The notes under the pieces: model-generated
Told to the model about the DNA's origin: nothing
The model's input: only the letters and a program-made list of their open reading frames with translations
The model's database searches: none
Translations under genes and position numbers: made by a program
Virus record (IMG/VR): IMGVR_UViG_2700988794_000001
Coordinates: 1 to 64,000 of that record
Length of the DNA stretch: 64,000 nucleotides
Reading direction: 5' to 3' (one strand)
DNA from: a virus
Taxonomy: Duplodnaviria > Caudoviricetes
In this document: positions 1 to 62,019 of the stretch, piece after piece
How positions within the stretch are numbered: position 1 is the first letter of the stretch
Layout of the letters: every line of letters begins with the position of its first letter

Positions 1-70
1 ACTGCACCCACACGTGCGGACTATGTTCGTGCAACAGGTTGCACACACAGAAGGGATACGGGAGCACGCA

Positions 71-1261
71 ATGAGCACCCGAGATGAGGACAGCGAAGAT
101 GGTTTGCTGCCGTCCAACGGGACAGGCTACCGTTTTCCCATTCGTGATCGTAGGTTTGAAGGCCGCACCCAGGAGGTAGCCGATGCCGCTGACGGCGACG
201 AAGATATCGATACTGATGCTGTTGATGGCACTGGCAATGGCGATCTTAGTGCCTCTCTCGATCTCACTGGCGTTCGCTCTCGCCGCCGTGTCCCTATGGA
301 AACACATGAGAGTGAGCTTCCTTCACCTCCGCAGGCGTCTGGCGCACCGTCCACGCTCGCCTCCGATGCTCCTGTAGACGACGATCCCACACCTCCAGAG
401 GAGCCGGGCGTCCAGGTTATGGACACACCGCGCTCCTCTCGCGTTCGTAATGCCGCCGCCCGTGCCCGCAATGTGCAACTAACCGACCGCGAAAGCCGCA
501 TGACGGATTTGCTTGGTGGTCGCAACCGCGCCTCCGCTGGCAACGACCCACTTATCGGAATGGTTACCAGCGCGCCACGTGCGCAGCGCGGACAGTCCGA
601 CACCCGCTCGCTTGACGAGTTCGACGCACAATTCCTTGCCGACGCCCAGACCGCCTTCGGTGAAGGCTTCGTTCCTGGCAACATGTTGCCCGGCGACGTG
701 GGCGACCGTATCCGCCATATCGTTCTGGTGGCCAACGTCTACGCCCAAGAGTTCATCCTCGACCAGCTTGAGCGCATGATCCTCTCCAAGGTGCCGGTGG
801 ACACCATCGCTTCGCGCTTCCGCGTCAGCGTCCACACCATTGTGCTTTGGCGCAAGAAGCTGAAGGCGCGTTGGGCCGCTAAGGTCCAGGAGATGAAGAG
901 CGGTGATATCGCCTCTATCATCGGCGAACACATGGCGAAGTTCGAAGTGCGCATGTCGATGGGCATGGCCCTCGCACAGAAGCCGAACGCCACCCTGGCA
1001 GAGATCACACGCGGCATCGACATAGCCGAGCGCGCGCAGACGAACCTGATCAAGTACCAGGACATGCTTGGTCTCCATGACCAGAAGCCGCTCGCCAACA
1101 GCAGCGACAGCACCAACCAGGAAGACCAGCACGTCAAGGGCGCGAAGAACGTCACCAACGCCATCGCCGAACTGTTTGGCATGGCCAGCGCCTTCCCGGT
1201 CGCGGGCGGCGAAGATGATGGCGAGATCGAAGAAGATCAGTATTCGCGGGTTGCCGAATGA
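71..1261 (+). CDS. putative terminase small subunit with long acidic disordered N-terminus
   Basis: Overlaps the TerL start; HTH-like segment VPVDTIASRFRVSVHTIVLWRKK; GGAG before ATG at 71. Confidence 0.6.
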   Translation: MSTRDEDSEDGLLPSNGTGYRFPIRDRRFEGRTQEVADAADGDEDIDTDAVDGTGNGDLSASLDLTGVRSRRRVPMETHESELPSPPQASGAPSTLASDAPVDDDPTPPEEPGVQVMDTPRSSRVRNAAARARNVQLTDRESRMTDLLGGRNRASAGNDPLIGMVTSAPRAQRGQSDTRSLDEFDAQFLADAQTAFGEGFVPGNMLPGDVGDRIRHIVLVANVYAQEFILDQLERMILSKVPVDTIASRFRVSVHTIVLWRKKLKARWAAKVQEMKSGDIASIIGEHMAKFEVRMSMGMALAQKPNATLAEITRGIDIAERAQTNLIKYQDMLGLHDQKPLANSSDSTNQEDQHVKGAKNVTNAIAELFGMASAFPVAGGEDDGEIEEDQYSRVAE

Positions 1262-3330
1262 GCGGCGCGGTCGATCCATTCTATACAGCGACATCAGACA
1301 TCCACCCCGCCAACACAGCGGGGCAACGTCTTTCAGAGCATGAGCAAGAGGCGCTCTTCGATGCCGCCGCCATCCGCTTCGAGCACATGTACGCTCAGAT
1401 GCTGGGAAACAGGCAGTTCCGACAGGCCGCGATCCTGAAGCACGCCGTCGAGCAGTGGCTCGATTATCGGAACGTCACCTGGATGGGCCAACTCATGCTC
1501 CTCCGGCGCTTCCCGGTCACCGTGCGCGAATTCATGGAGAGTGAAGACTTCATGGGGGAGTTGACCAATACTTGGCCCTCCCTGAAGAAGCAGCTTGAGG
1601 AGATGAACCCCGACGTATTCACCGGGGCAACGCCGGTCTACGAATGCCTGCTAGGCGGCGCGACCGGCACGGGCAAGACCTTCCTCTCCGACAAGTCGAA
1701 CAGCTACCAGCTTTACTTGCTGTCGTGCTTCGACCAGCCACAGGCCCTCTGGAACAAGTCACGGTCCACCAGGATCGTCATCATGTTCATGTCGGTCTCG
1801 CAGACCGTCTGTAAGCGAGTTATCTATGAGCCGTTTAGGAACGATTTCCTTGCAATGCCGTATGCCAAACGGTTCATCAAGTATGATAAGTACAAGCAGA
1901 GTTCGCTTGTCCTTTCGGGAAATATCGAAGTCGTTCCTGCACTCGCCGCCCTCAACTCCATGGTCGGTCAGGCCGTTATCGGCGGCATCCTGGACGAAGT
2001 GAACTTCATGGCTCGCGTCGAGAATTCGAAGCAGGTGTCCGGCCCTCGTGGTCTTGGCGGCACCTACGATCAGGCCGAGCAGGTTTACTTCAACATCACC
2101 CGCCGCCGTACCTCGCGTTTCCCCTCGAAGCGTGGCGTCTCCATTGGCAACATCTGCGTCATCTCCTCGACGCGCTACAAGGGCGACTTCCTTGACCGGC
2201 GCATTGACGAAATGGAGCAGATCAGAGGCTCCGATGCCGACGCCGTCGAGAAGGAGATCGCCAGCCATATCGCCACCTTCCGGCGCAAGCGCTACGAAGT
2301 CGTTCCGGAAGAGGATTACTCTGGCAAGAAATTCCGCATCCTGATCGGCTCGGAAAACTGGTCCACGCGCATCCTCGGCGACGATGAAGTGGCTGGCAAG
2401 GACTTCCCGGAGAACGGCAAGGTCGAGTGGGTGCCCATCGAGCACAAGCGCGAATTCATGCAAGACCCGGAGAACGCGCTCCGCGATATCGTCGGCATCG
2501 CCACGGATACGATCAGCGCCTTCATCAAGCAGCGCCACAAGATCGTGGACGCCATCGAGCGCGGACAGCGAAACGGGCTGAAGCAGATCATCGACCAGGA
2601 CATCTGGGATTTGCAGACGGACGGCTTCCCTTACTGGAACCGCCACGTCGTTCGCCAGATGGCCGACGATCCGAAGACCAAGAACAAGGTTCTTTGGGCG
2701 CATATCGACTTGTCCATCTCCGGCGATACGACCGGCGTCTCTGTCGTGCGCTTCGACGGATGGATGAACGTCAGCGACGAAGATGGCAACATCCACGTCC
2801 GTCCGAAGTTCTCTGTCCTGGCAGCGTTCGGCATCAAGCCGTCCGGTAACGAAGAAATCGACCCGGCCAAGGTCCGTGACCTCGTGATGCAGCTTGGCAC
2901 CACCTACGGGCTGGCACTGCGCGAAGTCACCTACGATAGCTACCAGTCGAACGAGAGCATCAAGGAACTGCGCAAGGCCGGTATCCGGTCGCGTGTTATC
3001 TCGACAGTCACCGCCACCACGGCCTACCTCGATCTTCGCTCGGCTCTCTACGAAGACCGCGTCGATATCGTGCCGCCGTCCGACCTCCTCTGGAACGAAC
3101 TTTCCACGCTGGAGTACATCGCCGACAAGGATATCGTTGATCACCCGCCGCGCGGCTCCAAGGACGTTGCCGACTGCGTTGCAGGTGCCATGCAGGCAGC
3201 GATCACTTCGCGCATCCTCCGCAACGGTGGCGGACAGGTCAAGGATACGGGCGAGTACGCCAAGACCAACCTCCCCGCGCCGCCGCAGCGCATGCGGATT
3301 GCCCCAGGCACGCTCACGAAAAAGGATTGA
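1258..3330 (+). CDS. terL: terminase large subunit
   Basis: Walker A GGATGTGKT, Walker B GILDEV, nuclease motifs AHIDLS and DHPPRGSKDVADC. Confidence 0.9.
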   Translation: MSGAVDPFYTATSDIHPANTAGQRLSEHEQEALFDAAAIRFEHMYAQMLGNRQFRQAAILKHAVEQWLDYRNVTWMGQLMLLRRFPVTVREFMESEDFMGELTNTWPSLKKQLEEMNPDVFTGATPVYECLLGGATGTGKTFLSDKSNSYQLYLLSCFDQPQALWNKSRSTRIVIMFMSVSQTVCKRVIYEPFRNDFLAMPYAKRFIKYDKYKQSSLVLSGNIEVVPALAALNSMVGQAVIGGILDEVNFMARVENSKQVSGPRGLGGTYDQAEQVYFNITRRRTSRFPSKRGVSIGNICVISSTRYKGDFLDRRIDEMEQIRGSDADAVEKEIASHIATFRRKRYEVVPEEDYSGKKFRILIGSENWSTRILGDDEVAGKDFPENGKVEWVPIEHKREFMQDPENALRDIVGIATDTISAFIKQRHKIVDAIERGQRNGLKQIIDQDIWDLQTDGFPYWNRHVVRQMADDPKTKNKVLWAHIDLSISGDTTGVSVVRFDGWMNVSDEDGNIHVRPKFSVLAAFGIKPSGNEEIDPAKVRDLVMQLGTTYGLALREVTYDSYQSNESIKELRKAGIRSRVISTVTATTAYLDLRSALYEDRVDIVPPSDLLWNELSTLEYIADKDIVDHPPRGSKDVADCVAGAMQAAITSRILRNGGGQVKDTGEYAKTNLPAPPQRMRIAPGTLTKKD

Positions 3331-3381
3331 ACTTGCACGTGTAGGTGCTAGAGTGGAGTGGCGATAACAGGAGGCCTACAA

Positions 3382-3917: not shown

Positions 3918-3943
3918 GTGCAACGTGTTGCACCATTTATAGC

Positions 3944-3972
3944 TTGCCAAAGGATTGGTTCCTTGTTAGATT
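3944..3972 (+). promoter_or_regulatory. sigma70-like promoter, AAGGA-spacer class
   Basis: TTGCCA-17-TAGATT; spacer AAGGATTGGTTCCTT. Confidence 0.75.
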
Positions 3973-5251: not shown

Positions 5252-5458
5252 TGCAACCTGTTGCAACCTAATAGAAAGGGGTGATGCGAAGTATCCAAGC
5301 AGTAATAGGGCCGTGGAACCTACACATGTGAATGCGAAATATAGCATATAAGAACGCATAGATTGTTTTTTGGTTCCACTTTGATTAGATTTTTCTTGCG
5401 AACATACCTCACATTTGGTACTTACGTTCGCAGGGCAGCATTAGGGCTAATCCAAATT

Positions 5459-6210: not shown

Positions 6211-6237
6211 TCTGTCGCAACGGGTTGCACGACCCAC

Positions 6238-8176: not shown

Positions 8177-8475
8177 ATGAGTGAAACCCGTACCCGCGTC
8201 CGTCGCCCGGACGCACCCGCAGAGGAGAATAACGTGGCAGAAGAAACCGTGATCGCCGAAAGCGATGTTGCAACTGTTGCACTGGTCGAAGAAGCCGTCA
8301 GCGCAACGCCTCTTCAGGGACCGTTCCGCCGTGACGGTTTCCATATCGTTGACGCAGCCGGTCGCCGGATCGTCATGGCTGGCGTCGAGGGCGATATCGT
8401 TCGCACCGGCCCCGGCATCGCGGAAGCCTGCTCTTTTACATGAACAGGCAGTACGTCGAAGACGGTCGCCTCTAA
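8177..8475 (+). CDS. hypothetical protein (probable indel near 8428)
   Basis: GGAG RBS; begins MSETRTRVRR. Confidence 0.55.
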
Positions 8476-8532: not shown

Positions 8533-8561
8533 TTGACAAAGGATCGGTTCTAGGTTAACTT
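8533..8561 (+). promoter_or_regulatory. promoter, AAGGA-spacer class
   Basis: TTGACA AAGGATCGGTTCTAGGT TAACTT. Confidence 0.75.
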
Positions 8562-8586: not shown

Positions 8587-9192
8587 ATGATCGAAGTTAG
8601 AACGAGAGCCCGCCCCACAGCGGCCCCAGAGATCGCAGTCCGTACCCGGACCCGCCCAGAGCCCGCCGTCCAGGTGCGCACGCGCCAGCGTGCCGTCCCT
8701 GCCCCGCGAGAGCGCAACGTGGACGTTGAGGCGTTGATCGCCGAAGGCAACGACCAGAAGCATTTCGAGAACGTGCTTCCCGGCATCCGTATCACGTGCG
8801 GCATCTGCTACCAGGAGACCGGCGAACGCGTCTTCCTCGGCAGGATCGTCTACAAGCGGATGGACCAGCCGTGCAAGGTGTTCGTCTACAAGGGCAAGGG
8901 CCACGAGAACGACCCGGCCAGCTACGTGATGGACGCCACCAAGAACTACGATGACGCCGTCGCCGTGCTCCGCAAGCGTCACGAACACCGCAGCGCCGAG
9001 AAGAAGCCCGCCACCCAGAAGGCAAAGGCGAAGACGCCTCCCGCTTGGCGACCGGCACAGACCTATCAAAGGTCCGGAAGAGGGCGCGCTGAGGTGCAAC
9101 AGGTTGCACGGGTTCCGGGTGGACGGGCTAAGCAAGAGGTAGTAGTGGCACAGCCCGGTCAGCTACAGGTGAAAAGAAACGTAAAATTATGA
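8587..9192 (+). CDS. basic hypothetical protein with three VRTRxR repeats
   Basis: GGAGAACCGCC RBS; C-terminus KRNVKL. Confidence 0.7.
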   Translation: MIEVRTRARPTAAPEIAVRTRTRPEPAVQVRTRQRAVPAPRERNVDVEALIAEGNDQKHFENVLPGIRITCGICYQETGERVFLGRIVYKRMDQPCKVFVYKGKGHENDPASYVMDATKNYDDAVAVLRKRHEHRSAEKKPATQKAKAKTPPAWRPAQTYQRSGRGRAEVQQVARVPGGRAKQEVVVAQPGQLQVKRNVKL

Positions 9193-9820: not shown

Positions 9821-9853
9821 GTGTCGTGCAACTCGTTGCAAAGGGAAAACGCA

Positions 9854-10225
9854 ATGACAAAGAGCCATAAGCCTGCAAGGGGCTCGCAACAGGAACGCTT
9901 GCTGATCGGTCTCCTCCACGGGGATATCGTGGACCCGATCAAAGCCATCAATGACTACAACGTGCTGATCCCAGCCGCCCGCGTGGCCGAACTCCGGCGC
10001 ATGGGGTGGCCGATCCGCAGCATCCACATAGCTCATCCGAGTGACAAGTTCATCGGGGAAAGCCTGACCGCGTACACGCTCGATAATCACTTCAGGCGAT
10101 GGTACGGCGACCCGGCCAACCTCGGCAAACACCCTGCCCTCTACCCCGGCAAGGACGGGCGCGGCAAGTTCGAGGACTGGCAGCAAGAAGACTTCGAGCG
10201 CGGGGAGCGAGCGCATGCTGGGTAA
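9854..10225 (+). CDS. winged HTH protein (HTH_39-like)
   Basis: SQQERLL...DPIKAINDYNVLIPAARVAELRRMGWPI pattern. Confidence 0.65.
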   Translation: MTKSHKPARGSQQERLLIGLLHGDIVDPIKAINDYNVLIPAARVAELRRMGWPIRSIHIAHPSDKFIGESLTAYTLDNHFRRWYGDPANLGKHPALYPGKDGRGKFEDWQQEDFERGERAHAG

Positions 10226-10919: not shown

Positions 10920-10948
10920 TTGACAAAGGATCGTTCCTAAGTTAGAGT
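10920..10948 (+). promoter_or_regulatory. promoter, AAGGA-spacer class
   Basis: TTGACA AAGGATCGTTCCTAAGT TAGAGT. Confidence 0.75.
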
Positions 10949-10973: not shown

Positions 10974-12563
10974 TTGGCCTACTTAATCCTTCCCATGCAA
11001 GAAGCCTGTGCCGTGGATTTCACGAAGTGGTCCAGGCCTCCGGTGAGCTTACGGATAAGCGTTCCGCTCAAGGAAATCCGTCACGTCGATTTGCGGGAGC
11101 GCGGGTACGACAACCCCTTCCGCGTCCACGATGAATTCACGCAGATTTGCCCGGTCGCCGACCTGACCAGGATAGACCGTGACGCTCTCCAGGAAAAGTT
11201 GCCCTTCCAGTATCGCGTCGATAGTGACGGCGTCATCTGGTATCAGCCGGGCTCGACGGTGCAGACGCACTACTCCCTGACCCATGAGAAAGAGTTGGAC
11301 GCGCTCAACGTCCCTGATTATTTTTCCTGCCGCGATTGGTTCCCGCAGGACGACTACTACGCGAAGCGCGGCGCATTGCTTGAGCGTGGCCAATATGGCT
11401 CTAGACATATAAGCGTCTTCAACCATAGGGGCGAGCAGACAGGGAGCACGCCGACTTGCCGGTTGATCATTCCCGATGACTTCGAAACGAAGTTCGACAT
11501 TGGCGAGGATGGCTTCTACTACTCCAAGCTATGGGGCTTCGACGTGTCCTATACGAAGGGGAGCAGTATCTCGAAGCTTCAGTCCTTCCTCGACGGCGAG
11601 ATGGGCACGATCAAGGACACCTACGTGGCTCAGGCATTCAAGAGAATGCCGTCTGCGTACATCCGTGGAGACTACGCCAAGAACATCCTCAATCACGGCA
11701 AGAAGTTTGAAAAGGCGTTCCGCGTAGCCGAAGAGCCGGTCAAGCGGAAAGACGTGCAGAAGGCCGTCCGTAACGGCGGCGCGCGCTTCGTCAACCTCGG
11801 AGAAGACAGGGACAACATCGGGTGCTTCCCGGCAAACGCGTTCGTCAATACCCGTGCAACAGGTTGCACCGAGAACCTCGGTTTCCTGCACCTCGGTTTT
11901 AGGACCAACGGCGATAACGTCCTCTTGACGCCGCCGCACGACACGAACCCTTTCCTGACGCCCGCCGGAACCATGCTCGTGCACAAGACAGCGGACGCGT
12001 GGCGCTTCGTCTTCATGTCGCTGATGATGGTCACCAATCACATGCTCGACGCTGACCGTCTGCGATCCTTCCCGGCGCTCTACATGATACCGCAGTACGT
12101 CCACCGCAATGAAGTGACCTTCTCCACCAAGGCGTTTCGCGGCGTCGGCCTGGAGATACAGGAAGCGATATGGGCTACCGAAGGGATGAGCATGGCGATC
12201 AGCCGGGCCATGATGGGGCTCAAGTACGAGATGTCACGCAAGCCGAAAGACTTCGCCCTGAACACTGACCAGATCGCGAAGCTGCCTGAGAACCACAAGA
12301 TAGGTATGATCGGGGTAGGCTATGCGGGCTACATGAAGACCGGCGACACCCTACGGGATTACGCTGGCATGCTGGGTACGGATGGACAGGTTCACCACGA
12401 CGGCCTCTATAACTTGCAGCTAACCAGCCGCCATACGCTCAAGTTTAATCGTGCCGTGGACCTCCTGGATATGATCTTCTGGGACTTGCCACCCAACAGT
12501 TTGGTGCAGGCCAAGCGTAAGGTCGAAACTAAATTCGTCTCGACCCGGAATGTTCGCATCTAG
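10974..12563 (+). CDS. hypothetical protein, 529 aa (C-terminus TRNVRI)
   Basis: GGAGAACCAC RBS before TTG start. Confidence 0.7.
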   Translation: MAYLILPMQEACAVDFTKWSRPPVSLRISVPLKEIRHVDLRERGYDNPFRVHDEFTQICPVADLTRIDRDALQEKLPFQYRVDSDGVIWYQPGSTVQTHYSLTHEKELDALNVPDYFSCRDWFPQDDYYAKRGALLERGQYGSRHISVFNHRGEQTGSTPTCRLIIPDDFETKFDIGEDGFYYSKLWGFDVSYTKGSSISKLQSFLDGEMGTIKDTYVAQAFKRMPSAYIRGDYAKNILNHGKKFEKAFRVAEEPVKRKDVQKAVRNGGARFVNLGEDRDNIGCFPANAFVNTRATGCTENLGFLHLGFRTNGDNVLLTPPHDTNPFLTPAGTMLVHKTADAWRFVFMSLMMVTNHMLDADRLRSFPALYMIPQYVHRNEVTFSTKAFRGVGLEIQEAIWATEGMSMAISRAMMGLKYEMSRKPKDFALNTDQIAKLPENHKIGMIGVGYAGYMKTGDTLRDYAGMLGTDGQVHHDGLYNLQLTSRHTLKFNRAVDLLDMIFWDLPPNSLVQAKRKVETKFVSTRNVRI

Positions 12564-14388: not shown

Positions 14389-15434
14389 TGTCTCCAAGGT
14401 AGATTTCTTTCACTCGACGGGCTGCACATGTTGCGGCCCTTCGAAGTTTGAGGCAACGCTTGTCGATATGCTGACGGTCGCCACGGACATGACCGTGCAA
14501 CGTGTTGCAATCGATGACTGGCTGGATCAGCTTGACGCCAAGGAGGCGGAGCCGGAAGCAGAGATCATCAATCCTGCCGACGATCCTTTCCTCGAATACG
14601 AACTGGTCATCGCTTCCGTCCTGGCGGAGCGCAGCGGCGACTTCGTGAAAGAGGCGGAAGCCATCCTCAAGAAGGCCTTCTACATCCCCGTGGCGCAGAA
14701 GGCAGCGGGCGACAAGACACGCGAGTACACCGCTCGCATCGAAGACGCCATCTCTGCCGTCGAGCAGGCTCGCAAGCTTTGGGAGACACAGGCCTTTCCA
14801 TTGAGGGCGCGAACACGATCAGCTACGCGCTCGGAGACGCCATCTCCTCCGGCACCCGTTCGGCCTACGAGATGACCGGCTCGATGTTGCCGCTCTCCAA
14901 CCAAGCCCGTGACACGATGATCACCGGGATGCTGAACGCCAGCAAGTATTATTCCAACGCGTTCTTCAACACCCAGGTGATGCCCGCGCTGATCCGGGCT
15001 ATCGAGTTGGGCGCGGCACCCAGGGCGAGAACCTCATCTGGTCTACGATCCGCGACGTGCTGCACACCCGCCTCAAGACCGTCCCTTACTGGCGCGTCGT
15101 GGCGAATGCCGCTGCGTCCCGCGCCTACCATTACGGCGTCCTGAAGAGCGGCCAGTCCGCCGGTCGCCGGTACTATGAGTTCTCAGCCATCCTCGACGCC
15201 AAGACATCGGAGACGTGCTGGGCTCTCAACGGAATGCAGTGGCCGGTAGCCGACGCCATCGCTTTGATGGAGCGCATCGCCGCCGCAGAGCCGGAAGAAG
15301 TGAAGACGCTCGCGCCCTGGATCAACTACAAGACCCTCGAACCGATGCTTTCGAACCCGTTCGCGATGCAGTCTTTGGGCGTGATTATCCCTCCCGTGCA
15401 CGGCAATTGCCGCTCAACAATCATTTTGCGTTAA
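14375..15434 (+). CDS. minor head / head morphogenesis protein (Mu gpF / SPP1 gp7-like), two indels
   Basis: AILDAKTSETC and PPVHGNCRS motifs; pieces at 14360, 14779 and 15057. Confidence 0.75.
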
Positions 15435-15521
15435 AAATCTGCAACAAGTTGCACAGGCCTAGTTGACAGCAAATCAATTCAGCCATACAAAAAGCGCACA
15501 CATGTAGGTGACGAGGAAGAG

Positions 15522-42173: not shown

Positions 42174-42194
42174 GTCTGCCACGTGATATAAAGG

Positions 42195-42307: not shown

Positions 42308-42327
42308 GCAACATGTTGCATTAAGGC

Positions 42328-44340: not shown

Positions 44341-44526
44341 GACATCCGCCCTGCCGTGCAACCCGTTGCATTGCAGGGCTTTTTAGCGTCTAGTGGTAAG
44401 GAGGCGACACACCTACAAGATGTAGTAGGCTTGACATGTAGGCCCGTTAGGGCTTATGAATACCCCTCGATCCGGCCAGGGCACCTAGCAAGGTATCCGG
44501 ATCAAGTCGCACCCAAAGGAATAACA

Positions 44527-47797: not shown

Positions 47798-50624
47798 TGC
47801 CAGCTATGCGACCACGCCATGTGCAGCTTGAAGAAAAACGACCGGTGCAACAAGTTGCAGGCGCTACCCACATGCGTCGGGCGGAGGAAGGCGGTCGCCA
47901 CACCTTCAGCTTCGGACCCTACGACCACCCGGTAACCGATGAGAAGTGCGGCGACATCCTGGTTGTATGCGATGCGCAGAATTGGGATGCTCAGCGTTGG
48001 GGCTACCCGATGCATCCCGATAGCATGAGGATGTTCGCCAAAGCCGCAGAGAAGGCTGGAGTTCCTGACGGCAAGATCACCTTCCTCGGCCTCTGCCCGC
48101 CCGTGCCGACCCAGGACATCAAGTCCGCCGCCCGCACCTGGAAGCACGTCGAGAAGTTCGTGCCCGGCGTCATCGAGTACATCAATCAGCAGAAGCCGAA
48201 GGTCGTCGTCACCCTTGGCGCGCTCGCCAGCCGTGCCGTCTTCGACCGTTCCGTGTCGATCACCAAGGCCCGTGGCGTCCTCGTGCAGCCGCACCCCCAC
48301 CGCCCTCACGTCTTCCCGATGCTGTCGCCCGGCTTCATTGCCCGCGTCCCGGAACACCAGAAGACTTTCGAAGGCGACATTGGCACGCTCTCGAAGTTCG
48401 TACATGCCGGGTTCGATCCGAATGGCATCATGACGATGGAGACCGACTACCAGTGGTGCTACGATCTCCAGTTCATGATCGACAACCCGCCACAGGCCCT
48501 TGCCGTTGACACAGAAGGCACAGGGCTGCGTTGGCACCAGGACAGCACTCGGAACCTCACCGTACAGCTATCCCCTCGCCCAGGCGTCTCCTATATCATC
48601 CCCGTGGACGAAGCCTATGTGATGAAGTGGGCGAAGTTCTTCCCACCTCGGCTTGCCGGTCGCTTGGCCGGTTGCGCGAGCAGTTGAAGCAAATTCTGGA
48701 AAACCCCGACATCCAGAAGATGGGCCACAACATCAAGTTCGACCATATGATGATCCGCAAGATGGGCATCAATATGCAGAACGTCAAACACGATACGCAA
48801 ATGATGGCGTTCGGTGTTGACGAGAACATGATGTCCAAGACCCTGGACGATTGCGTCCGCGTCTGGGTTCCGCAGATGTCCGGCTATGCCGACGACTTCA
48901 ACACGCACGTTGACAAGAACAGGATGTTCGACGTGCCACCCGAAGACATCCTGGACGAAAACGGCAAGGTCATCCAGTACGGCATGCGCCGATACGCAGG
49001 CGGCGATACCGATGCCACCTTCCGGCTTGCCCGCGCCCTCTATCCGTTGCTTCGGCGCGAGCCCAGCCAGTGGAACATCTACGAGCGCATCCATATGCCC
49101 GCCCTGATGGCCTTCGCTAATCGCCTGGAGCGGTATGGCATGGTTATCGACCAGGAAGCGCTACGCAAGCTCTCTGGCGACGTGAAGGCATGGCTGAAGG
49201 ACGAGTTCCGGGCGCTGATCCGTATGGTGCCTCCTGCCGTCCGCCGCAAGCATCTCGAAGCCGGTCTCAAGTTCTCCCGTGACCAGTTCGTCCGTGATAT
49301 CCTCTTCAGCGAAGACGGCTTCAACCTCAAGCCCCAGGTCTTCACCAAGTCCACCGAAGACCTTTCGGATGAGACCAAGCGCGTGCCGTCCGTCTCGACC
49401 AAGGATCACATGCCCTACTTCGTGACCCGCAAGGACACGGCAGGGCAGTTCGTCACCCGTCTGATCGAGTACCAAAAGACCTCGAAGATGGATAGCACGT
49501 ATTGTGGCAACGAAGAGGAAAGGACCGGGTTCTGGCAATACCTGAATAGCAGCAGCCGCATCTTCCCATCCTTCGCGCTGCACAAGACCAACACAGGCCG
49601 CACCGCATCTAGCGATCCGAACGGCCAGAACTATCCGAAGCGTGGTCAGTGGGCCAAACCGTTCCTGAAGGTCTTCAAGCCCAACCCAGGCTACCGCTTC
49701 GTCGCCGCCGACTTGTCGCAGATCGAACTGCGCATCGCTGCCTGGGAAAGCGGCGATGAAACAATGCTTGACATTTATCGCAATGACGGCGATATTCACA
49801 TGATGACAGCGGCAGCAACTATGCGCCTCTCTGTCGAAGAATTCCTACAACAAGAACCTGCCATCCGTAAGTTTAAACGCTTCGCCGCTAAAGCTGTGAA
49901 TTTCGGCTTCGTTTACGGAATGGGTGCAAAAGGCTTCCGGACCTACGCTAAGACGCAGTACGGCGTGGATTACTCCGAGCGTGAAGCCTACGAGACCCGC
50001 GAACTGTTCTTTGCCACCTACCGGCAACTCATCGCATGGCACGAACGTCGCAAGACCGAAGCACGTCGCCAGGGCTTTGTGTCCTCGCTGCACGGCGCTA
50101 TCCGTCACCTGCCGTCGATCTACTCCAGCGACCAGGGCGTGGCGGCTATGGCAGAACGGCAGGCCGTCAACGCGCCTGTCCAGCGCTTCGGCTCCGACCT
50201 CGGCGTCATGGCCCTAACCCGTCTCTCATGGCAGGCAGACCCGGAAATCATGCGCCCGGTCGGCTTCGTCCATGACCAAGTCATCTGTGAGGCCAAGATC
50301 GGCCACGAACTGGAAGCGGCCAACGCCCTGGTATGGGCTATGGAAAACCCGCTGCTCGAAGAGTGGTTTGGCATCACCGCGCCGCTGCCGATCAAGGCCG
50401 AGCCGGATATCGGCGACACCCTCGGCACCACCCTCGAACTGAACGAAATGCCGAAGAACGAAGACGGCTCTCTGAAGGTTCCCGACTGGTGGAGCGAGAC
50501 TGGCATCGAGTGCGTCAACGTCAACGGCACATGGAAGGCCCCGTTCGCCCCGGCCAAGCCCACATGGTGGAACGACAATGAGGCAGAAGCGCAGGAGCAG
50601 TTCACCCGCTTCCTCCACGTTTAA
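47797..50624 (+). CDS. family A DNA polymerase with N-terminal UDG-like domain (indel near 48660)
   Basis: AVDTEGTGL, GHNIKFD, TGRTAS.DPNGQN, ADLSQIELR, AKAVNFGFVYG, FVHDQ. Confidence 0.9.
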
Positions 50625-50651
50625 ATGCAACTTGTTGCACCATTTTAGGTG

Positions 50652-50680
50652 TTGACAAAGGATCGGTTCCAAGTTAGATT
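50652..50680 (+). promoter_or_regulatory. promoter, AAGGA-spacer class, with inverted spacer copy downstream
   Basis: TTGACA AAGGATCGGTTCCAAGT TAGATT; GGAACCGATCCTT at 50696-50708. Confidence 0.8.
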
Positions 50681-51658: not shown

Positions 51659-52721
51659 AGCTCCGCTCCGCAGTATTCTCGCAAGGCTTGGGATTAGAAA
51701 TTTTCCCAAGCCTAACCATGCTGGATGGGGCCACGTGGCTTGCCCGTTCGCCCGCTACATGCCGCAGCACAAGTCCGGCGTTGACCGCTCACAGGGCTTC
51801 GCTATCAAGGTTGAGAAGGACGGGCCGTCTGCCTTCAACTGCCCTGTCTGCAAGATGCATGGCCGCATCTCCAACCTCGCCATGAACCTTGGCCGGTTCC
51901 ATGACCGGGACTACACCGAGGTGGCCTACGACGCCGACATGGCCGACCTGGACGCCCTCAACTACCTGCCCGCATTCGAAGCCGTCGAAGTGGACTTGCC
52001 GCCGACGCCCTTGGATGATGCGATCTTTGATGGCATGTTCGAAGAGCCCTGGAAGGTGCACAACCGCTACCCGCAGGCCGTACGCTTCCTCCAGGCCCGT
52101 GGCGTCTCCCAGGCGACCGCCGAGAAGCTCGGCCTCGGCTACGATCCAGAGAAGAAACGCATCACCTTCCCGGTGCGCGGCTTCAAGGGGGAGCTTTACG
52201 GCTTCTCCGGTCGAACGATCATGCCCGACCACAAACCGAAGGTGCTGGACTATGAGAACCTCCCCAAGCGTTGGCTCATTCTTGGCGTCGAGTTCTGGGT
52301 TCCCGGTCGCCCCATTGTCATGGTCGAAGGCCTGTTCGCCTACGCTCACTTCCATGAGATCGGCGCGGCTGAAAACTACAACGTCGGCGCTCTGCTTGGA
52401 TCGTATCTCACGCCCGAAAAGGCTGACATCCTTAAGTCCTATGACGAACCCGTGTACTGGTTCACCGATCCGGACCCGGCTGGCGATGATTGCCTCTTTG
52501 GCCGCGTTCTTCCGGGCCAGGATCAACTGCCAGAGGAAGACGACGAGCCGGGCGAGCGCGAGCTTCTCCGAGACCGCTCCACCTCTGCTCTATATGCGCT
52601 GAACGGTCACGTGCCGCAGTACGTCCCGAACTACCCCGTGGACGATCCGGACGATCTGACGGTGCAACAGTTTCACTGGATGATGGACAACGCCGAACTT
52701 TGGCTTCCCGACGCCAAGTAG
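51651..52721 (+). CDS. DNA primase (Zn finger + TOPRIM)
   Basis: CPF...H, CPVC, ITFPVR, GFSGRTI, VEGLF, DPDPAG. Confidence 0.85.
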   Translation: MDEAPLRSILARLGIRNFPKPNHAGWGHVACPFARYMPQHKSGVDRSQGFAIKVEKDGPSAFNCPVCKMHGRISNLAMNLGRFHDRDYTEVAYDADMADLDALNYLPAFEAVEVDLPPTPLDDAIFDGMFEEPWKVHNRYPQAVRFLQARGVSQATAEKLGLGYDPEKKRITFPVRGFKGELYGFSGRTIMPDHKPKVLDYENLPKRWLILGVEFWVPGRPIVMVEGLFAYAHFHEIGAAENYNVGALLGSYLTPEKADILKSYDEPVYWFTDPDPAGDDCLFGRVLPGQDQLPEEDDEPGERELLRDRSTSALYALNGHVPQYVPNYPVDDPDDLTVQQFHWMMDNAELWLPDAK

Positions 52722-54116: not shown

Positions 54117-54150
54117 TGAGTAACCGGCTTCTCCCGGTGCAACAGGTTGC

Positions 54151-55619
54151 ATGCGCATGAATGACATGGTCACAAACGTAGGGAATTCTACGCCGCTAGT
54201 GGGCTCACTCGGCGGCTGGCTCTACGTGCCTTACGATGTCATCGGCGACTATGCCGCCCTGCATCGGGAGAAGACGGCCTTAACCTATCTCCCGAAATTC
54301 GCAGAGACAGACAATGACACAGTTCGCCTATATGAAGATGTCCCTCGCCGCAGGGTTCTCGGCGTTCCGCGCGCTTACGGCCTGGAGCGCTTTGGTCATC
54401 TGCTCAACCCGCGAGACCTCCGTACCTTTGGCGAGCGTATGGGTCCGATCCCGCGTCTTCCAAGTCCAGATCATCCAAGCGTAAAAGACCCGCATGCGCA
54501 GGCCAAGTTTATGGCCGACCTCGAAGCCGCCGCCCGCCAGCACTTTCACTTTCTGGCAGAGGCACCGACCGGCTCCGGCAAGACCGTGTGCGCTATCCGC
54601 ACCGCTGCCGTGATCGGGCGCAAGACCGTGGTTAACGTCCACCTGGAGCGTCTTCTAGGCCAGTGGATGGACGAGATACACAACAAGACCGGCCTCCCCT
54701 ACGACCGCATCGGAATGGTGCAGGGCGACAAGTGGGATTGGCGTGATAAAGATTTCGTAGTGGCGATGATGCCCACGTTGGCCTCGCAGAATGGTCGCAT
54801 CGATCCGGCCTTCTTCCAGTCCTTCGGCACGGCTATCTATGACGAAGTGCACAGGGTCGGCGCTCCCATGCTTGGGCAGACGGCGCACCTCTACCCGGCT
54901 CACTATCGTTGGGGCTTCTCCGCCACGCTATACCGCAAGGACGGCGGCGAACGGACCTTCTACTGGCACATTGGGCCGGTGCGCGTGACCTCCCAGGCCG
55001 CTGCCCTGCCGATGACGGTCTACGTCAAGAAGTACACCGCATACGGAAAGCTATGGGGCAAGAACCACGGAAGCCGGATGCAGTGCCTGTCGCAGGATTG
55101 GTCCCGGAACCAATTGCTGGTGGTCTTCATCCGCCGCTTGCATCGCGCCGGGCGTCAGACGCTGATCGTCGGCGACAGTGTTCAACATCTACAGCACCTG
55201 ATGGACCTTTGCGCCCAGGCAGGTGTTTCCCGTGAAGACATGGGACAGTTTACGAGCGAGCGGCACATACTTCAGGAGTACGTGAACGAAAAAGGGGAAA
55301 AGAAGACACGGGTTCGGAAAATCAAGATCAAGCCGGAAGAACTGGATGCCGTTAAAGAGAACGCGCAACTGATCTTTGCCACGTATGGATGATGACGGAA
55401 GGTATCGACATACCCCGTCTCGACGCTGGCATCGACGTGCTACCACGAGGAGACGCAACACAACTTATTGGCCGCATTCGTCGGCCACGCCCTGGAAAGC
55501 CAGAACCTGTCTGGATCACCCTACTCGATACCAAATGCTTTATGAGCAAGAAGTATTTTGAGCGCAGGTGCAAGGACTATCAGGCTACCGGTGCGATAAT
55601 CAGAGAAGGTGCAATATAA
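54151..55619 (+). CDS. SF2 helicase (UvsW-like; indel near 55388)
   Basis: APTGSGKT, DEVH, SAT, EGIDIP.LD, Q.IGRI.R. Confidence 0.88.
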
Positions 55620-56500: not shown

Positions 56501-57681
56501 ATGACTGAAGTCCGTTCCCGTAGCCGTCCCGCTGCCGCACCTGCCGCCGTGCAACCTGTTGCACCGACCATCGCCACACCCGCCTACAATCGTGGCGAGT
56601 TGGCTGGCGTCCTGAAGGCCGTCAACAAGAGCCATGGCGAGGGCATCATCTCCCGTGGCAACGTCAAGCCCGTGATCGAGCATATCCCCACCGGCATCTT
56701 TGCGCTCGACATGGCGACCTTCGGCGGCATCCCGCAGGGCCTTGTGACGCTGCTCTACGGCTGGGAAAGCTCCGGCAAGACGACACTCTCCATGAAGGCC
56801 ATCGCGGGCGCTCAGAAGAAGTACCCGTCGAAGGCTGTCACGGTTATCGACATCGAAGGCACCTTCGATATGAATTGGGCTCGCAACGGCCACGGCGTCG
56901 ATACCGACAGTCTGGTCTACGTCAGCCCGTCCTCTGGCGAGCAGGCGCTGGATATCGCCGATGGCATCTTGCGTGCCGAGGAGACCTCGCTGATCCTGGT
57001 GGATAGCTTGGCCGCGCTCATCCCCACCAAGGAACTGGAGAAGAGCTTCGAAGACGGCGTCGTCGGCGAGCAGGCGCGTCTGATCGGTCGCTTCGTCCGC
57101 AAGGTGCAGCAAGCCGTCCTGGAAGAACGTCGCCGTGGGCACGCTCCTGCCATCATCCTGGTCAACCAGTGGCGCTACAAGGTCGGCGTCATGCACGGCG
57201 ATCCTCGCACCCTTCCGGGCGGCATGGCGCAGCACTACGTGGCCGGTCTCAAGATCGATATCAAGAACAAGGAAAAAGCCGGTCGCGATGATCGTAACAT
57301 CGAAGTGATCGACTACAACGAGCACTCGTTCACCATCGCCAAAAACAAGATGGGCAACGGCATCCGCACGGGTGAGTTCGAGATGATCCGCAACCCGTCG
57401 CATTGGCTCGGGCCGGGCTTCATTGACGACGCCAAGACCGTTGTCTCCTACGCCATCAAGATGGGCCTTGTCGGCGGCTCCGGGGTCGCTACACCTTTGA
57501 CGGCCTCCCCAATGAGACCTTCCGCAAGTACGATGACATCGCCGAATACATGTACCAAGACCTGGACTTCTTCGACGCCACCAAGCATCGCCTGATCTCG
57601 CTTCAGCGCATTGCTTCCGGCCTCGAAGGCACGGGCTGGTACGTACCGGAAAGCCAGCAACTCTTGCAGGCCGCAGAATGA
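56501..57681 (+). CDS. recA: RecA-like recombinase (indel near 57485)
   Basis: IPTG..ALD, YGWESSGKTT, VDSLAAL, QARL, NQWR.KVG, KNK. Confidence 0.9.
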
Positions 57682-59688: not shown

Positions 59689-59718
59689 TATTTTGTTGCA
59701 ACTTGTTGCAGCGAGGTG

Positions 59719-59747
59719 TTGACAAAGGATTATTCCTCCCTTAGATT
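59719..59747 (+). promoter_or_regulatory. promoter, AAGGA-spacer class
   Basis: TTGACA AAGGATTATTCCTCCCT TAGATT. Confidence 0.75.
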
Positions 59748-59794: not shown

Positions 59795-61150
59795 ATGGCA
59801 TCCGAGTACAAGCAAGGCGACATTGTCGCGTTCAAAGACTACGAAGACAGCGCCAAGGCGGCTGAAGGTTTTGTGGCCATCCTGGAACCCGGCCAGACCC
59901 TTCGGATCGAAAAGGTCGGCGATGACGGTTCTCTGATCGTCGTTGCGATTGACGAGGAAGGCGCTGCCATTCTCGGCGACGACAACAAGCCGGTCGCAGA
60001 TCAGGTGTTCCCGGAAGAAGTCGAAGAACTCGCTGGCGACGAAGCCACCGAAGAAACCGACACGGACGGCGCATCCGCCACCGACGCCGCCACGGCTGAA
60101 GAAGCCGCTCCGGCCAAGACCGAAGCCCCGGCCCCGGCTGGCAAGCGTGCCGCTGGAACCGGCAAGGCAAAGCCCGCTGCTGCCGTGAAGGAAAAGGCAC
60201 CTACCGCCGCCGAGAAGAAGGCGAAGGAAAAGGCCGACGCCAAGGCGGCTGCTGAAAAGGCAAAGGCTGACGCCGCTGCCAAGAAGCTCGCCGACAAGGA
60301 AGCTGCCGACAAGGCCAAGGCGGACGCCAAGGCTGCGAAGGAAGCCGAGAAGCAGAAGAAGGCCGAAGCCAAGCTGGCAACGCCGGACAATGATGACCCG
60401 CTGATGATCCGGGTGGACGAGACCAAGACGGTCACCGAAATCCTGAAGGACCAGTCGGCTCTCGAAGCGGCCAAGATGCTGGTCAATCGTTCGGAGCAGA
60501 CCGACTTCACCCTCGGCGGCGTTCTGCACAACATCTACGTGACCGGCGCGTTCAAGTCGATTGGCTACGACGGCAAGCGCGGCTTCTCCGACTACGTGGA
60601 AAGCGAACTCGGCGTTCAGTACCGCAAGGCGCGCTACCTGATCACCATCTACACCACGTTCGCCCAGGTGTTCCGCGCCAAGGGTATCACGGAAGACGAC
60701 CTCCTGAAGCTCGGCTGGTCGAAGGCCAAGGAACTCGCCCGTATCCCGGTCAACAAGCTGGTCGAAGACTACGACAAGCTCATCGCCATGGCCGTGGACA
60801 AGGAGAAGTCCCGCGACGATCTCATCGCGCACATCAAGGACAACTACGAAGTCGTCCAGCGTGAAGAAACCGTCAAGGCCATCGACCTGAAGTTCCGTCT
60901 GGTCGCCGACGCCGCTGACGTGGTCAATCAGGCCCTGGAAAAGGCCAAGGGTCTCGTCGGCGAAGGCGCTGACCTCAACAAGGCCCTGGAATACATGGCT
61001 GGCGATTGGCTGAACACAGCCGCAAGCGAAACGACGATGACGCTCCAGTCGTTGATCGACTTGGCTTCGGCTCAGTTCGGTGTTACCCTGGTCGCCGCCG
61101 AGGAAGGTTCCACTTCGGAAGCCGGTGAAGTAGCCGAACAGGCCGCTTAA
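59795..61150 (+). CDS. hypothetical protein with Ala/Lys-rich linker and probable DNA-binding C-terminal domain
   Basis: AK repeats; FSDYVESELGVQYRKARYLI...LGWSKAKEL. Confidence 0.65.
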   Translation: MASEYKQGDIVAFKDYEDSAKAAEGFVAILEPGQTLRIEKVGDDGSLIVVAIDEEGAAILGDDNKPVADQVFPEEVEELAGDEATEETDTDGASATDAATAEEAAPAKTEAPAPAGKRAAGTGKAKPAAAVKEKAPTAAEKKAKEKADAKAAAEKAKADAAAKKLADKEAADKAKADAKAAKEAEKQKKAEAKLATPDNDDPLMIRVDETKTVTEILKDQSALEAAKMLVNRSEQTDFTLGGVLHNIYVTGAFKSIGYDGKRGFSDYVESELGVQYRKARYLITIYTTFAQVFRAKGITEDDLLKLGWSKAKELARIPVNKLVEDYDKLIAMAVDKEKSRDDLIAHIKDNYEVVQREETVKAIDLKFRLVADAADVVNQALEKAKGLVGEGADLNKALEYMAGDWLNTAASETTMTLQSLIDLASAQFGVTLVAAEEGSTSEAGEVAEQAA

Positions 61151-61228: not shown

Positions 61229-61253
61229 CTTTGCAACTTGTTGCACTTAGCTG

Positions 61254-61282
61254 TTGCCAAAGGAACGGTTCTACGTTAGATT
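61254..61282 (+). promoter_or_regulatory. promoter, AAGGA-spacer class
   Basis: TTGCCA AAGGAACGGTTCTACGT TAGATT. Confidence 0.75.
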
Positions 61283-61310
61283 ATAAACATCGAAACGGAG
61301 AACCACCGCA

Positions 61311-61901
61311 ATGAACACCCCCACTACTGCAAAGCATCTCCAGGGCGTAATGCACCTCCTCCCGGCCAAGGACCAGTCCTTCGCGAAGAGCCTGATCAGC
61401 GCCCGTAACCCGACCGAGAAGCAACTCTTCTGGATCGGCAAGCTGTTCGACCGCGCCGTAGGTGCCGAGTGCAAGCCGGAGCGCGAGACCGCCACGGTCG
61501 GCGACATGGCTGGCATCAACGCAATGTTCGACCGCATCGGCAAGACCAAGCTCCGCCGCCCGGCTATCGTGCTCCACACCGACTACTGCGGAGATGTCCG
61601 CCTCAACGTCGCCGGTCCCGGTGCCCAGGTGCCCGGCTCGATCAACGTGGTCGCTGTCGATGGCGGACAGTGGTTCGGTCGCGTCACCAAGTCTGGCGTG
61701 TTCGAGAAGTCCTTCAAGCATGAGACGCCCGACAGTGTCGTGGACATCCTCCGCGAGTTCGCCGCCGAGCCCCTGGAGGTTGCGGCTCGCCACGGCAAGC
61801 TGACAGGCCGCTGCTGCTTCTGCAACCACGGTCTGAAAGACCCGAAGTCCACCGCCCGTGGCTACGGCCCTATTTGTGCTCGTGCCTGGGTTGGGGCGTA
61901 A
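61311..61901 (+). CDS. DUF6011-domain protein
   Basis: CCFCNHGLKDPKSTARGYGPIC; CGGAGAACCACC RBS. Confidence 0.7.
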   Translation: MNTPTTAKHLQGVMHLLPAKDQSFAKSLISARNPTEKQLFWIGKLFDRAVGAECKPERETATVGDMAGINAMFDRIGKTKLRRPAIVLHTDYCGDVRLNVAGPGAQVPGSINVVAVDGGQWFGRVTKSGVFEKSFKHETPDSVVDILREFAAEPLEVAARHGKLTGRCCFCNHGLKDPKSTARGYGPICARAWVGA

Positions 61902-62019
61902 GCCCTTCCTCACGGTGAAACTTGTTGCACTCGAATTTTGTTGCCTACATATGTTGACCTGTATATAGTGGTACGCTGGGAACGGCACCCACCACATACA
62001 GACATCATTGGAGCAATGG

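Follow-up and report, generated by a model that had tools for sequence, protein, structure and literature searches.

The DNA considered here is the first 64 kb (64,000 nucleotides, hereafter the window) of the 109,558-bp tailed-virus record IMGVR_UViG_2700988794_000001 (59% G+C), in which a short palindrome, TGCAAC-N1-2-GTTGCA, recurs about once every 2 kb. Our own rough gene caller, on which all coding and intergenic assignments below depend, predicts 177 genes in this genome (174 on the + strand), which take up about 89% of the DNA and leave about 11% intergenic. The closest relative is Rhizobium phage RHph_I4 (MN988552, 108,441 bp), the sole megablast match, to which 76% of the genome aligns by blastn at 79.7% identity; a search of IMG/VR for close relatives returned a single 5-kb fragment bearing the capsid gene. 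Based on the RHph_I4 annotation and our searches, the genome has a siphovirus layout with terminase, portal, capsid, tape-measure and lambda-like tail-tip genes. It also encodes an AAA ATPase with DUF1257 and DUF2997 proteins, an O-like initiator, replication and recombination proteins (DnaB, PolA, primase, helicase, RecA, two resolvases, and a Cas4-like exonuclease), RNR, ThyX, and ParB_N proteins together with IbrA/IbrB-like genes. Neither an integrase nor an immunity repressor was recognised in the RHph_I4 annotation or in a Pfam scan of 30 of the ~178 predicted proteins.

The window contains 29 exact copies of the palindrome, at precisely the starts given in an initial annotation of this DNA, and the four one-mismatch copies (6216, 40180, 52663, and 61916) that it had listed. 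They are given below without a strand, together with their counterparts in RHph_I4.

30..43, exact palindrome TGCAAC-AG-GTTGCA, intergenic; identical RHph_I4 site at 21956
3919..3932, exact, intergenic, after a T-run; 11 bp upstream of the -35 box of promoter 3944; RHph_I4 25834
5252..5265, exact, intergenic, 1 nt past a stop codon; region unalignable to RHph_I4
6216..6229, one-mismatch copy CGCAAC-GG-GTTGCA, intergenic; mismatch identical in RHph_I4
8269..8281, exact, 1-bp spacer, coding; RHph_I4 counterpart 30176 with a 2-bp spacer
9095..9108, exact, coding; region unalignable to RHph_I4
9827..9840, exact, intergenic, 14 nt before the start of the winged-helix gene at 9854; RHph_I4 32095
11855..11868, exact, coding; kept in RHph_I4 (34169) despite a flank identity of 0.61
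14496..14509, exact, coding; RHph_I4 36813
15440..15453, exact, intergenic, TTGACA box 9 bp downstream; RHph_I4 37757
16755..16767, exact, 1-bp spacer, coding; RHph_I4 site offset by 9 nt, at 39073
19711..19724, exact, coding; RHph_I4 42022
22166..22179, exact, intergenic, 4 nt past a stop codon; RHph_I4 44486
23492..23504, exact, 1-bp spacer, tape-measure gene; RHph_I4 45815
26500..26512, exact, 1-bp spacer, tape-measure gene; RHph_I4 48823
27175..27187, exact, 1-bp spacer, tape-measure gene; lost in RHph_I4
29252..29265, exact, coding, gpK-like tail gene
31750..31763, exact, coding, gpJ-like tail gene
33685..33697, exact, 1-bp spacer, coding, gpJ-like tail gene
37329..37341, exact, 1-bp spacer, intergenic, 1 nt past a stop codon; RHph_I4 57728
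37864..37877, exact, intergenic, 15 nt before a start codon; RHph_I4 58268
40180..40193, one-mismatch copy TGCAAC-AT-GTTGCC, midway within the widest exact-copy gap; mismatch identical in RHph_I4
42307..42320, exact, intergenic, 7 bp upstream of the -35 box of promoter 42328; RHph_I4 62715
44357..44370, exact, intergenic; RHph_I4 64760
45848..45861, exact, coding, 3' end of the O-like initiator gene; RHph_I4 66254
47846..47859, exact, coding, 5' part of the DNA polymerase gene; RHph_I4 68255
50626..50639, exact, intergenic, 12 bp upstream of the -35 box of promoter 50652; RHph_I4 71032
52663..52675, one-mismatch copy, 1-bp spacer, coding, mid-gap; mismatch identical in RHph_I4
54138..54151, exact, intergenic; RHph_I4 74553
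56550..56563, exact, coding, RecA; RHph_I4 76961
59697..59710, exact, intergenic, 8 bp upstream of the -35 box of the promoter of the gene for a 451-aa protein; RHph_I4 79993
61232..61245, exact, intergenic, after a terminator-like T-run, 8 bp upstream of the -35 box of promoter 61254; RHph_I4 81515
61916..61929, one-mismatch copy TGAAAC-TT-GTTGCA, intergenic; RHph_I4 copy here exact

One hundred dinucleotide-preserving shuffles of the window yielded a mean of 0.01 copies and never more than 1, in agreement with the expectation of about 0.01 quoted originally. The whole genome has 59 exact copies (spacer of 2 bp in 47, of 1 bp in 12), while spacers of 0 or 3-14 bp and a version with swapped arms occur nowhere in it. 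Most TGCAAC hexamers of the genome (59/86) fall within palindromes, and the half-sites left outside them (27 TGCAAC and 23 GTTGCA) are close to the ~27 and ~21 that we estimated by hand from base composition. Because isolated half-sites stand at the base-composition level, the whole symmetric palindrome is the selected unit. As a perfect palindrome it reads identically on either strand and has no orientation with respect to transcription. Copies with one mismatch are also in excess (9 observed in the genome vs. 0.39 expected), and six of these nine bear the identical mismatch in RHph_I4. A trait of the Chi or uptake-sequence type, in which an oriented single-strand oligomer is enriched by itself, was not found, the half-sites being present in approximately the expected numbers.

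The tightest pair of sites in the genome is 117 bp apart. This sole close pair lies outside the window, at genome positions 90695 and 90812, and is kept in RHph_I4 at 108330 and 4; it could mark a special locus, for example an origin or a packaging start. We considered the sites as origin iterons and rejected this reading, as they never cluster. A second palindrome, ACAYRTGT, is present at 5322, 15498, 37383, and 61947 in the window and at genome positions 64691 and 97562, where it lies 30-70 nt downstream of some of the TGCAAC-N1-2-GTTGCA sites and close to gene starts. It was likewise rejected as a second motif (7 copies vs. 4.1 expected, not significant; 6/7 intergenic).

Selection on these sites acts at the DNA level. 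As proposed in the initial annotation, about half of the window's exact copies are inside genes (15/29 coding, 14/29 intergenic), and they are read in differing frames: the 24 coding copies of the whole genome are distributed over frame 0 (2), frame 1 (12), and frame 2 (10). The remaining 35 of the 59 sites are intergenic, although intergenic DNA makes up only about 11% of the genome. When synonymous codons were shuffled within genes (n = 300), the coding copies dropped from the observed 24 to a mean of 0.27, with a maximum of 3.

Comparison with RHph_I4, which carries 52 copies of the palindrome, leads in the same direction. Of the 59 sites, 47 are in DNA alignable to this relative, and 44 of the 47 have an RHph_I4 site within 30 nt, compared to about 3 partners expected by chance at 80% identity. 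Across 46 fully aligned pairs, the arms differ at 9/552 positions (1.6%), all within three lost sites, vs. 24/83 (29%) in the spacers and 542/2457 (22%) in the 30-nt flanks. The 17 coding pairs permit a further comparison at third codon positions, of which 8/68 have diverged inside the arms, compared to 36.1% genome-wide, and 7/13 within the spacers. Purifying selection is thus shown on the arms and not on the spacer.

The sites are also more evenly spaced than expected by chance. The coefficient of variation (CV) of their gaps is 0.52 (about 1 for random positions), and no random placement among 20,000 reached this evenness (P ≤ 1e-4). The widest gap between exact copies is 4443 bp (37864 to 42307; P = 1e-4) and is split by the one-mismatch copy at 40180; the proposed upper limit of about 3.9 kb therefore holds with one-mismatch copies counted and fails for exact copies. 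Copies with one mismatch tend to be located mid-gap, at a mean of 1114 bp from the nearest exact site vs. 597 bp for random points (P = 4e-4). In RHph_I4 the spacing is even as well (gap CV 0.57, P = 2e-4), and the tape-measure site at 27175, which is lost there, has a substitute about 180 bp further along that gene, at 49697.

Further, the palindrome is associated with transcription-unit boundaries. The genome has 28 copies, on the + strand only, of a long conserved promoter of the sigma-70/host type, TTGMCAAAGGAT-cggttc-N3-gTTAgatt, and at 15 of the 28 a palindrome ends 7-12 bp upstream of the -35 box; in RHph_I4 this is the case for 14 of 26 promoters. Members of this class in the window are the following.

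3944..3972, + strand, promoter TTGMCAAAGGAT-N-GTTAGATT, palindrome upstream
8533..8561, + strand, promoter of the conserved class, without upstream palindrome
10920..10948, + strand, promoter of the conserved class, without upstream palindrome; the last before a promoter-less structural stretch extending to 40419
40419..40447, + strand, promoter of the conserved class, without upstream palindrome
42328..42356, + strand, promoter of the conserved class, palindrome upstream
43034..43062, + strand, promoter of the conserved class, without upstream palindrome
50652..50680, + strand, promoter of the conserved class, palindrome upstream
59719..59747, + strand, promoter of the conserved class, palindrome upstream
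61254..61282, + strand, promoter of the conserved class, palindrome upstream

Six copies had been singled out earlier as lying roughly 7-12 bp before a -35 box (3919, 15440, 42307, 50626, 59697, and 61232), and the distances are indeed 11, 9, 7, 12, 8, and 8 bp, respectively. A recurrent order is a stop codon or terminator T-run, then the palindrome, then the promoter. By our count, fifteen intergenic sites start 1-9 nt past a stop codon, and some sites lie 12-18 nt upstream of start codons. The one-mismatch copy at genome position 81674 immediately follows a -10 box, a typical operator position, and is kept in RHph_I4. Across the structural-gene stretch between 10920 and 40419 there are 14 sites, mostly intragenic, yet none of the 28 conserved promoters. 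The invariant promoter spacer, AAGGATCGGTTC, may itself be a regulatory site.

The palindrome is absent from the available host DNA. We found no copy in four Rhizobium secondary replicons (642,517 + 505,334 + 870,021 + 684,202 = 2,702,074 bp; the chromosome is not among them). In phages it is widespread. Distant syntenic phages, whose terminase or capsid proteins are 30-50% identical to those encoded here, were scanned de novo for over-represented palindromes, which gave 46 sites of the form T(G/A)CAATCGATTGCA in Rhodobacter phage RcTiptonus, 17 sites of tTGCAAC-YG-GTTGCAa in Aeromonas phage HJ05, 30 sites of gTGCAA-RCGY-TTGCAc in Pseudomonas phage SM1, and about 9 sites of YGCAAT-NN-ATTGCA in Vibrio phage SIO-2. 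The core TGCAA-N4-TTGCA is common to all these phage lattices. Spacing is even in SM1 (gap CV 0.55, P = 8e-4) and more weakly so in RcTiptonus (gap CV 0.74, P = 0.03). In HJ05 one pair of sites is 46 bp apart. A weakened half-site in RcTiptonus is strand-biased: on the coding strand we counted 14 cases of TACAAT...ATTGCA and 4 of its mirror form, ...ATTGTA, which could reflect a mutational skew or an orientation preference.

A further member of this clade is recorded as a plasmid. The circular 'plasmid p7' of Rhizobium bangladeshense PLR8-1a (NZ_CP071625.1, 109,431 bp) has 43 exact TGCAAC-N1-2-GTTGCA sites and is a phage-like genome with the same gene order, including capsid, AAA ATPase, DnaB, Pol, and RuvC genes at 29009-69674 and a capsid homologue that is 49% identical; this suggests a plasmid-prophage or carrier state for some clade members. 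We also examined 80 IMG/VR loci (4.6-21 kb) that encode a homologue of the 451-aa protein described below. At least three copies of TGCAA-N4-TTGCA are present in 36 of the 80 and at least three of GCAA-N4-TTGC in 47, and other loci have variant arms (TGAAAT, GGCAAT, TCCAAT, GGAAAT) or the 1-bp-spacer form. For counts over whole records, 50 of the 80 loci, mostly longer contigs, were submitted and 48 were searched; among the 21 records at least 90% complete, 15 contain 15-75 copies of the 8-base core, compared to 0-7 of a reversed-pattern control. The finding is thus real, strongly non-random, selected, and general to a large phage clade.

Taken together, the results of the shuffles, the homologous sites, the synonymous positions, the absence from host replicons, and the spacing provide good support for selection on a symmetric duplex site. 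None of the computational checks that the initial annotation had proposed, all of which were carried out, spoke against its idea. The part of that reading concerning selection, with sites covering the whole genome, holds up well; a dimeric binder, its identity, and its role are what we infer from it. As the hosts belong to two classes of Proteobacteria and the motif shifts with phage lineage, a reader encoded by the phages is much likelier than one encoded by the hosts. Four candidate binders had been named, the products of genes at 59795, 55619, 9854, and 50735. The first two remain candidates, whereas the product of 50735 has no recognisable domain and that of 9854 is a weak candidate because it is found only in this phage and RHph_I4. 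With the ParB_N proteins added, the candidate genes are the following.

59795..61150, + strand, candidate binder 1, a 451-aa protein whose N-terminal domain is joined by an Ala/Lys/Glu-rich linker to a conserved C-terminal domain that contains a helix-turn-helix (HTH)-like segment
55619..56095, + strand, candidate binder 2, a 158-aa MerR-like winged-helix protein whose gene lies between those for the helicase and RecA in every lineage compared
66658-67983 and 69252-69782 of the genome, outside the window, candidate 3, ParB_N proteins
9854..10225, + strand, a winged-helix (HTH_39) protein with a palindrome 14 nt before its start

We rank them, with low confidence, as the 451-aa protein, then the MerR-like 158-aa protein, then the ParB_N proteins. 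The gene for the 451-aa protein has its own palindrome and promoter unit in this phage, in RHph_I4, in RcTiptonus, and in p7, and its family is large (4474 representative clusters at E ≤ 1e-3). The segment F..YVE.ELG..YRKA.YLI.IY...LGW(S/T)KLKEL of its C-terminal domain is near-invariant across motif classes. Its linker of roughly 110 residues (about 80-195) resembles the tails of histone H1 and nucleoid proteins. When homologues of this protein and of the MerR-like protein were aligned by motif class, with phylogeny uncontrolled, covariation was no more than hinted at: RKA was replaced by RTI in a GGCAAT-class locus, but a GGAAAT-class locus keeps RKA. The 158-aa protein matches a PHROG family of 'transcriptional regulators', and the best fold matches of its AF2 model (pLDDT 84.7) are DNA-bound winged helices of the MerR family (HiNmlR, CueR, RacA, BldC), at a weak level (E 0.07, probability 0.93). 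Sequence searches of the PDB with the 451-aa, 472-aa, and 158-aa proteins returned nothing or noise.

Pfam recognises ParB_N in the product of 67288-67983 (E 4e-7) and weakly in that of 69252-69782. These proteins match the N-domains of Noc, ParB, and KorB; among solved structures, Noc is the top sequence hit of the 231-aa paralogue (E 1e-5). For the RHph_I4 orthologue, AF2 modelling (pLDDT 75) gave a confident two-helix C-terminal unit, which, judging from the model, could be a ribbon-helix-helix. A deletion near 66855 splits the ParB-like gene at 66658-67295 (orthologue of RHph_I4 EVC24_113) into two frames, and the 7 closest of its 24 public relatives are all 212-215 aa; the deletion is either an assembly error or a recent frameshift. 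The surrounding cluster at 66.6-69.8 kb of the genome, with genes for an IbrA/DndC-like PAPS-reductase, two ParB_N proteins, and a further ParB_N protein that is IbrB-like, might be a module for modifying DNA; the start of the IbrB-like gene is preceded, at 13 nt, by a palindrome that RHph_I4 shares. In the 30 proteins scanned, Pfam recognised only HTH_39, ParB_N, PAPS_reduct, HNH, and several DUFs.

We propose, at a probability of about 75%, that the palindromes are an array of putative binding sites for a factor encoded by the phage, most likely a coverage lattice, read by a conserved phage protein with a further action at transcription-unit boundaries. The sites would be high-affinity duplex targets of a sequence-specific protein conserved through the clade, read by a two-fold symmetric dimer or by two monomers. 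At one per about 2 kb, with no interval above about 4.4 kb, they may function as nucleation or anchor points from which the protein would spread, bridge, or merely occupy the whole phage chromosome. As about half of the sites are at transcription-unit boundaries, one of them over a start, the binder would also silence or insulate transcription, in the way that KorB does from the 12 OB sites of RK2 and with a resemblance to Noc on its NBS sites and to stoperator repressors. To this particular mechanism, nucleation and coverage with a transcriptional side effect, we give a little less than even odds. A more specific version, which we consider improbable, is a phage chromatin based on a divided ParB system, in which the lattice would be a centromere-like loading grid read by the 451-aa family through a ParB-type HTH, with the ParB_N proteins acting in trans and the AAA ATPase possibly helping the spreading. 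The resulting coat over the chromosome would mark it as self, and could shield it from nucleases and host defences and set the transcription programme.

Several observations weigh against these proposals. Rigid dimers rarely accept a spacer that can be either 1 or 2 bp long, as it can here, and 13 of the 28 promoters lack any palindrome. Where one is present, its distance to the -35 box varies over 7-12 bp, which makes it unlikely that RNA polymerase is touched directly along one fixed helical face; the palindrome is thus tied to transcription units, but is neither required for a promoter nor placed at a fixed helical phase. Spacing in HJ05 is not significantly even (CV 0.76, n = 16), and 6 of the 21 near-complete relatives have only 2-8 core copies, at least some of them using variant motifs. 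As for the candidates, neither Pfam nor the PDB yielded a match for the 451-aa family (30 of its members and 10 long ones, run against Pfam, gave nothing consistent), and hhalign of this family against Rhizobium RepB gave a probability of 2.6%. Its likeness to a ParB-type HTH comes from our reading of the sequence and from ESM-Atlas leads below the tool's bar, namely DUF3102 and ParB-HTH-bearing clusters. The HTH of the 158-aa protein is highly variable among phages with the same motif. No HTH is recognisable in the ParB_N proteins, the copy nearest to those of other lineages has the 1-nt deletion relative to RHph_I4, and tblastn detected no ParB_N protein in SIO-2.

Instead of covering the genome, the sites could be operators or roadblocks of a single global phage repressor or activator, which would time early, middle, and late expression or silence lytic genes in a plasmid-like persistence; by the logic of stoperators or P1 C1, even spacing would then arise merely from the need to stop stray transcription everywhere. 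The 35 intergenic sites, the 15 promoters with a site just upstream, the site overlapping a transcription start, and the many sites 12-18 nt before start codons or 1-9 nt past stops all agree with this, as do the one-strand gene layout (174/177), on which roadblocks would be effective, the recording of a relative as a circular 109-kb 'plasmid' of R. bangladeshense, and the syntenic MerR-like 'transcriptional regulator' kept in all lineages compared. Symmetric sites, however, cannot be oriented with transcription as stoperators are, 24 of them lie in genes that need read-through (three in the tape-measure gene), and those 1-9 nt past a stop would be expected to stall RNA polymerase in the upstream gene. 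Besides the lack of a recognised integrase or immunity repressor noted above, the authors describing the RcF phages report no evidence of lysogeny (PMC8601537), and those describing the dispersed repeat of Cluster O mycobacteriophages deemed a transcriptional role unlikely (PMC4351075). We regard a set of operators alone as rather unlikely. RNA hairpins on the transcribed strand, serving processing, stability, antitermination, or translation, would also benefit from the one-strand layout, since sites are then transcribed in one sense, and from the several sites 12-18 nt upstream of start codons; a stem of 5-6 bp with a 3-4-nt loop can form. Yet four folded sites were no stabler than shuffled sequence (z-scores 0.25, -1.42, -0.97, and 0.80), the arms are invariant without covariation, and none of the nine one-mismatch copies preserves pairing via G-U. 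The pair-breaking form in RcTiptonus outnumbers the wobble-preserving one (14 vs. 4), many sites lie between terminator T-runs and promoters, where little RNA is expected, and Rfam and tRNA scans were empty. A structured RNA, a REP element, and an intrinsic terminator were accordingly rejected (folding like shuffled sequence, invariant arms, no Rfam family), and an RNA signal of any kind is highly improbable.

Targets of an enzyme are another explanation that we hold to be a long shot. Under this heading come site-specific nicking as in T5-like phages, hotspots for recombination by the RecA, Cas4-like nuclease, helicase, and resolvases that the phage itself encodes, sites where priming starts or helicase is loaded, signals for packaging, and base modification. 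Palindromes are typical of homodimeric nucleases and methyltransferases, the ~2 kb spacing is comparable to the lengths of Okazaki fragments and recombination tracts, and RecA, two resolvases, the Cas4-like exonuclease, helicases, primase, and the O-like initiator are kept clade-wide; a 12-bp-specific cutter with 59 sites of its own would, on the other hand, fragment the genome. Recombination between the Cluster O repeats was inferred by the authors who described them (PMC4351075). Here the half-sites are not enriched alone, contrary to single-strand recognition of the Chi type. There is no origin-like iteron cluster, the closest pair being 117 bp apart. The 'nuclease-like' ParB_N, PAPS-reductase (IbrA-like), and IbrB-like proteins at 66.6-69.8 kb also speak for this reading, but of the genomes compared, this phage and RHph_I4 alone turned out to have the IbrA/IbrB genes, and the enrichment just upstream of promoters is left unexplained. 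Still less probable is a host protein common to Proteobacteria, of the IHF/HU type or another nucleoid protein, recruited by the phage. CAA-N4-TTG in the motif does resemble part of the IHF consensus WATCAANNNNTTR, but the twelve invariant positions far exceed the specificity of IHF-type proteins. The core is identical across phages whose proteins are only 30-45% identical, and the host regulators AphA (PMC6855506) and HrpS (PMC8657755) read TGCAA-N4-TTGCA. Against recruitment are the 0 copies in 2.7 Mb of Rhizobium secondary replicons and the fact that, with hosts in the Alpha- and Gammaproteobacteria, position 6, the centre, and sometimes positions 1-3 differ by phage lineage.

Several known systems resemble a lattice of sites bound by a phage-encoded factor. 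KorB of RK2, a global regulator and a partition protein of the ParB family, has 12 OB operators (TTTAGCSGCTAAA, 13-bp palindromes whose central base is free), roughly one per 5 kb, next to and far from promoters. Both arrays consist of a 13-16-bp palindrome over a whole replicon, near and far from promoters, and ParB_N proteins are present here; the sites here are denser, many are in coding sequence, the motif is unrelated, and no KorB-like HTH was recognised in the phage ParB_N proteins. Noc on NBS, SlmA on SBS, MatP on matS, and RacA on ram each represent one dimeric DNA-organising protein with tens of dispersed 14-16-bp palindromes. Noc is, as said, the best solved-structure match of the 231-aa paralogue and the fold matches of the 158-aa protein include RacA, but those arrays are cellular, tied to division or segregation, and have different site sequences, and the present data give no grounds for assigning a phage a part in division or membrane binding; none of the parS, NBS, and OB consensus sequences has a half-site in common with TGCAAC-N1-2-GTTGCA. 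In the stoperators of Cluster A mycobacteriophages and the C1 operators of P1, dozens of short sites are distributed genome-wide for one phage protein, the immunity repressor of a temperate phage. Their many copies throughout the genome, inside and between genes, are like the 24 coding and 35 intergenic sites here, whereas they are asymmetric and oriented with transcription and ours are symmetric.

The 17-bp repeat TGTTCGG-N3-CCGAACA found in Cluster O mycobacteriophages comes closest as a precedent; its function was left open, and dimeric regulatory proteins were suggested for it (Cresawn et al., 2015; PMC4351075). It is likewise a perfect palindrome with a free spacer, present in more than 30 copies inside and between genes, kept in relatives, and absent from the host; our recount in Corndog gave 34 copies. 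It differs in sequence, arm length, and host phylum, and the lattice described here, unlike that of Cluster O, spans many phage genera with a conserved core. Corndog has an annotated ParB-like protein and an AAA ATPase homologous (30% identity) to the one encoded here, but its sites are uneven (gap CV 1.06) and clustered in one arm, and it has no copy of TGCAA-N4-TTGCA. We rejected Corndog as a true relative, the AAA ATPase being the sole shared protein detected by tblastn. The AAA ATPase gene of the present phage is as follows.

40500-42173, AAA ATPase, conserved, then DUF1257 and DUF2997 genes; PHROGs assigns no function

Cluster O, the second phage group with a known dispersed palindrome, also encodes homologues of this ATPase. 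The core itself has been reported for bacterial regulators: AphA of Vibrio (PadR family) prefers ATGCAA-N4-TTGCAT in one study (PMC6855506), and the HrpS enhancer site is given as TGCAA-N4-TTGCA in another (PMC8657755). Because both read the identical core, a two-fold symmetric protein can read TGCAA-N4-TTGCA. Unlike a phage-wide reader, both are regulators belonging to bacterial hosts, with either one site or a few dozen, and Pfam detected no PadR or sigma-54-activator domain in the 30 of ~178 proteins scanned, nor did PHROGs in the AAA ATPase. Apart from these comparisons, AT skew is positive across the entire window.

A full-text literature search, with supplementary files outside its reach, found neither the motif nor the lattice described in phages, and the text of the Rhodobacter phage paper (PMC8601537), again apart from its supplements, contains neither 'palindrom' nor 'motif'. 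What is new here is a palindrome lattice under strong DNA-level purifying selection, more even than chance and exclusive to the phage, and the core TGCAA-N4-TTGCA common to a large clade of 80-120-kb siphophages of Alpha- and Gammaproteobacteria. What was a curiosity is now a trait of a whole clade, for which a few candidate binders can be tested, and culturable pairs for this purpose exist in Rhizobium/RHph_I4, Rhodobacter capsulatus/RcTiptonus, and Aeromonas/HJ05. If a ParB system divided between the 451-aa family and the ParB_N proteins were true, it would be a genome-wide organiser new to tailed phages. More generally, if the binder does organise or mark the chromosome, the lattice would represent a new layer of phage genomes, such as self-marking, a chromatin-like coat, or global silencing, and it would give a function to an unannotated protein family of thousands of members.

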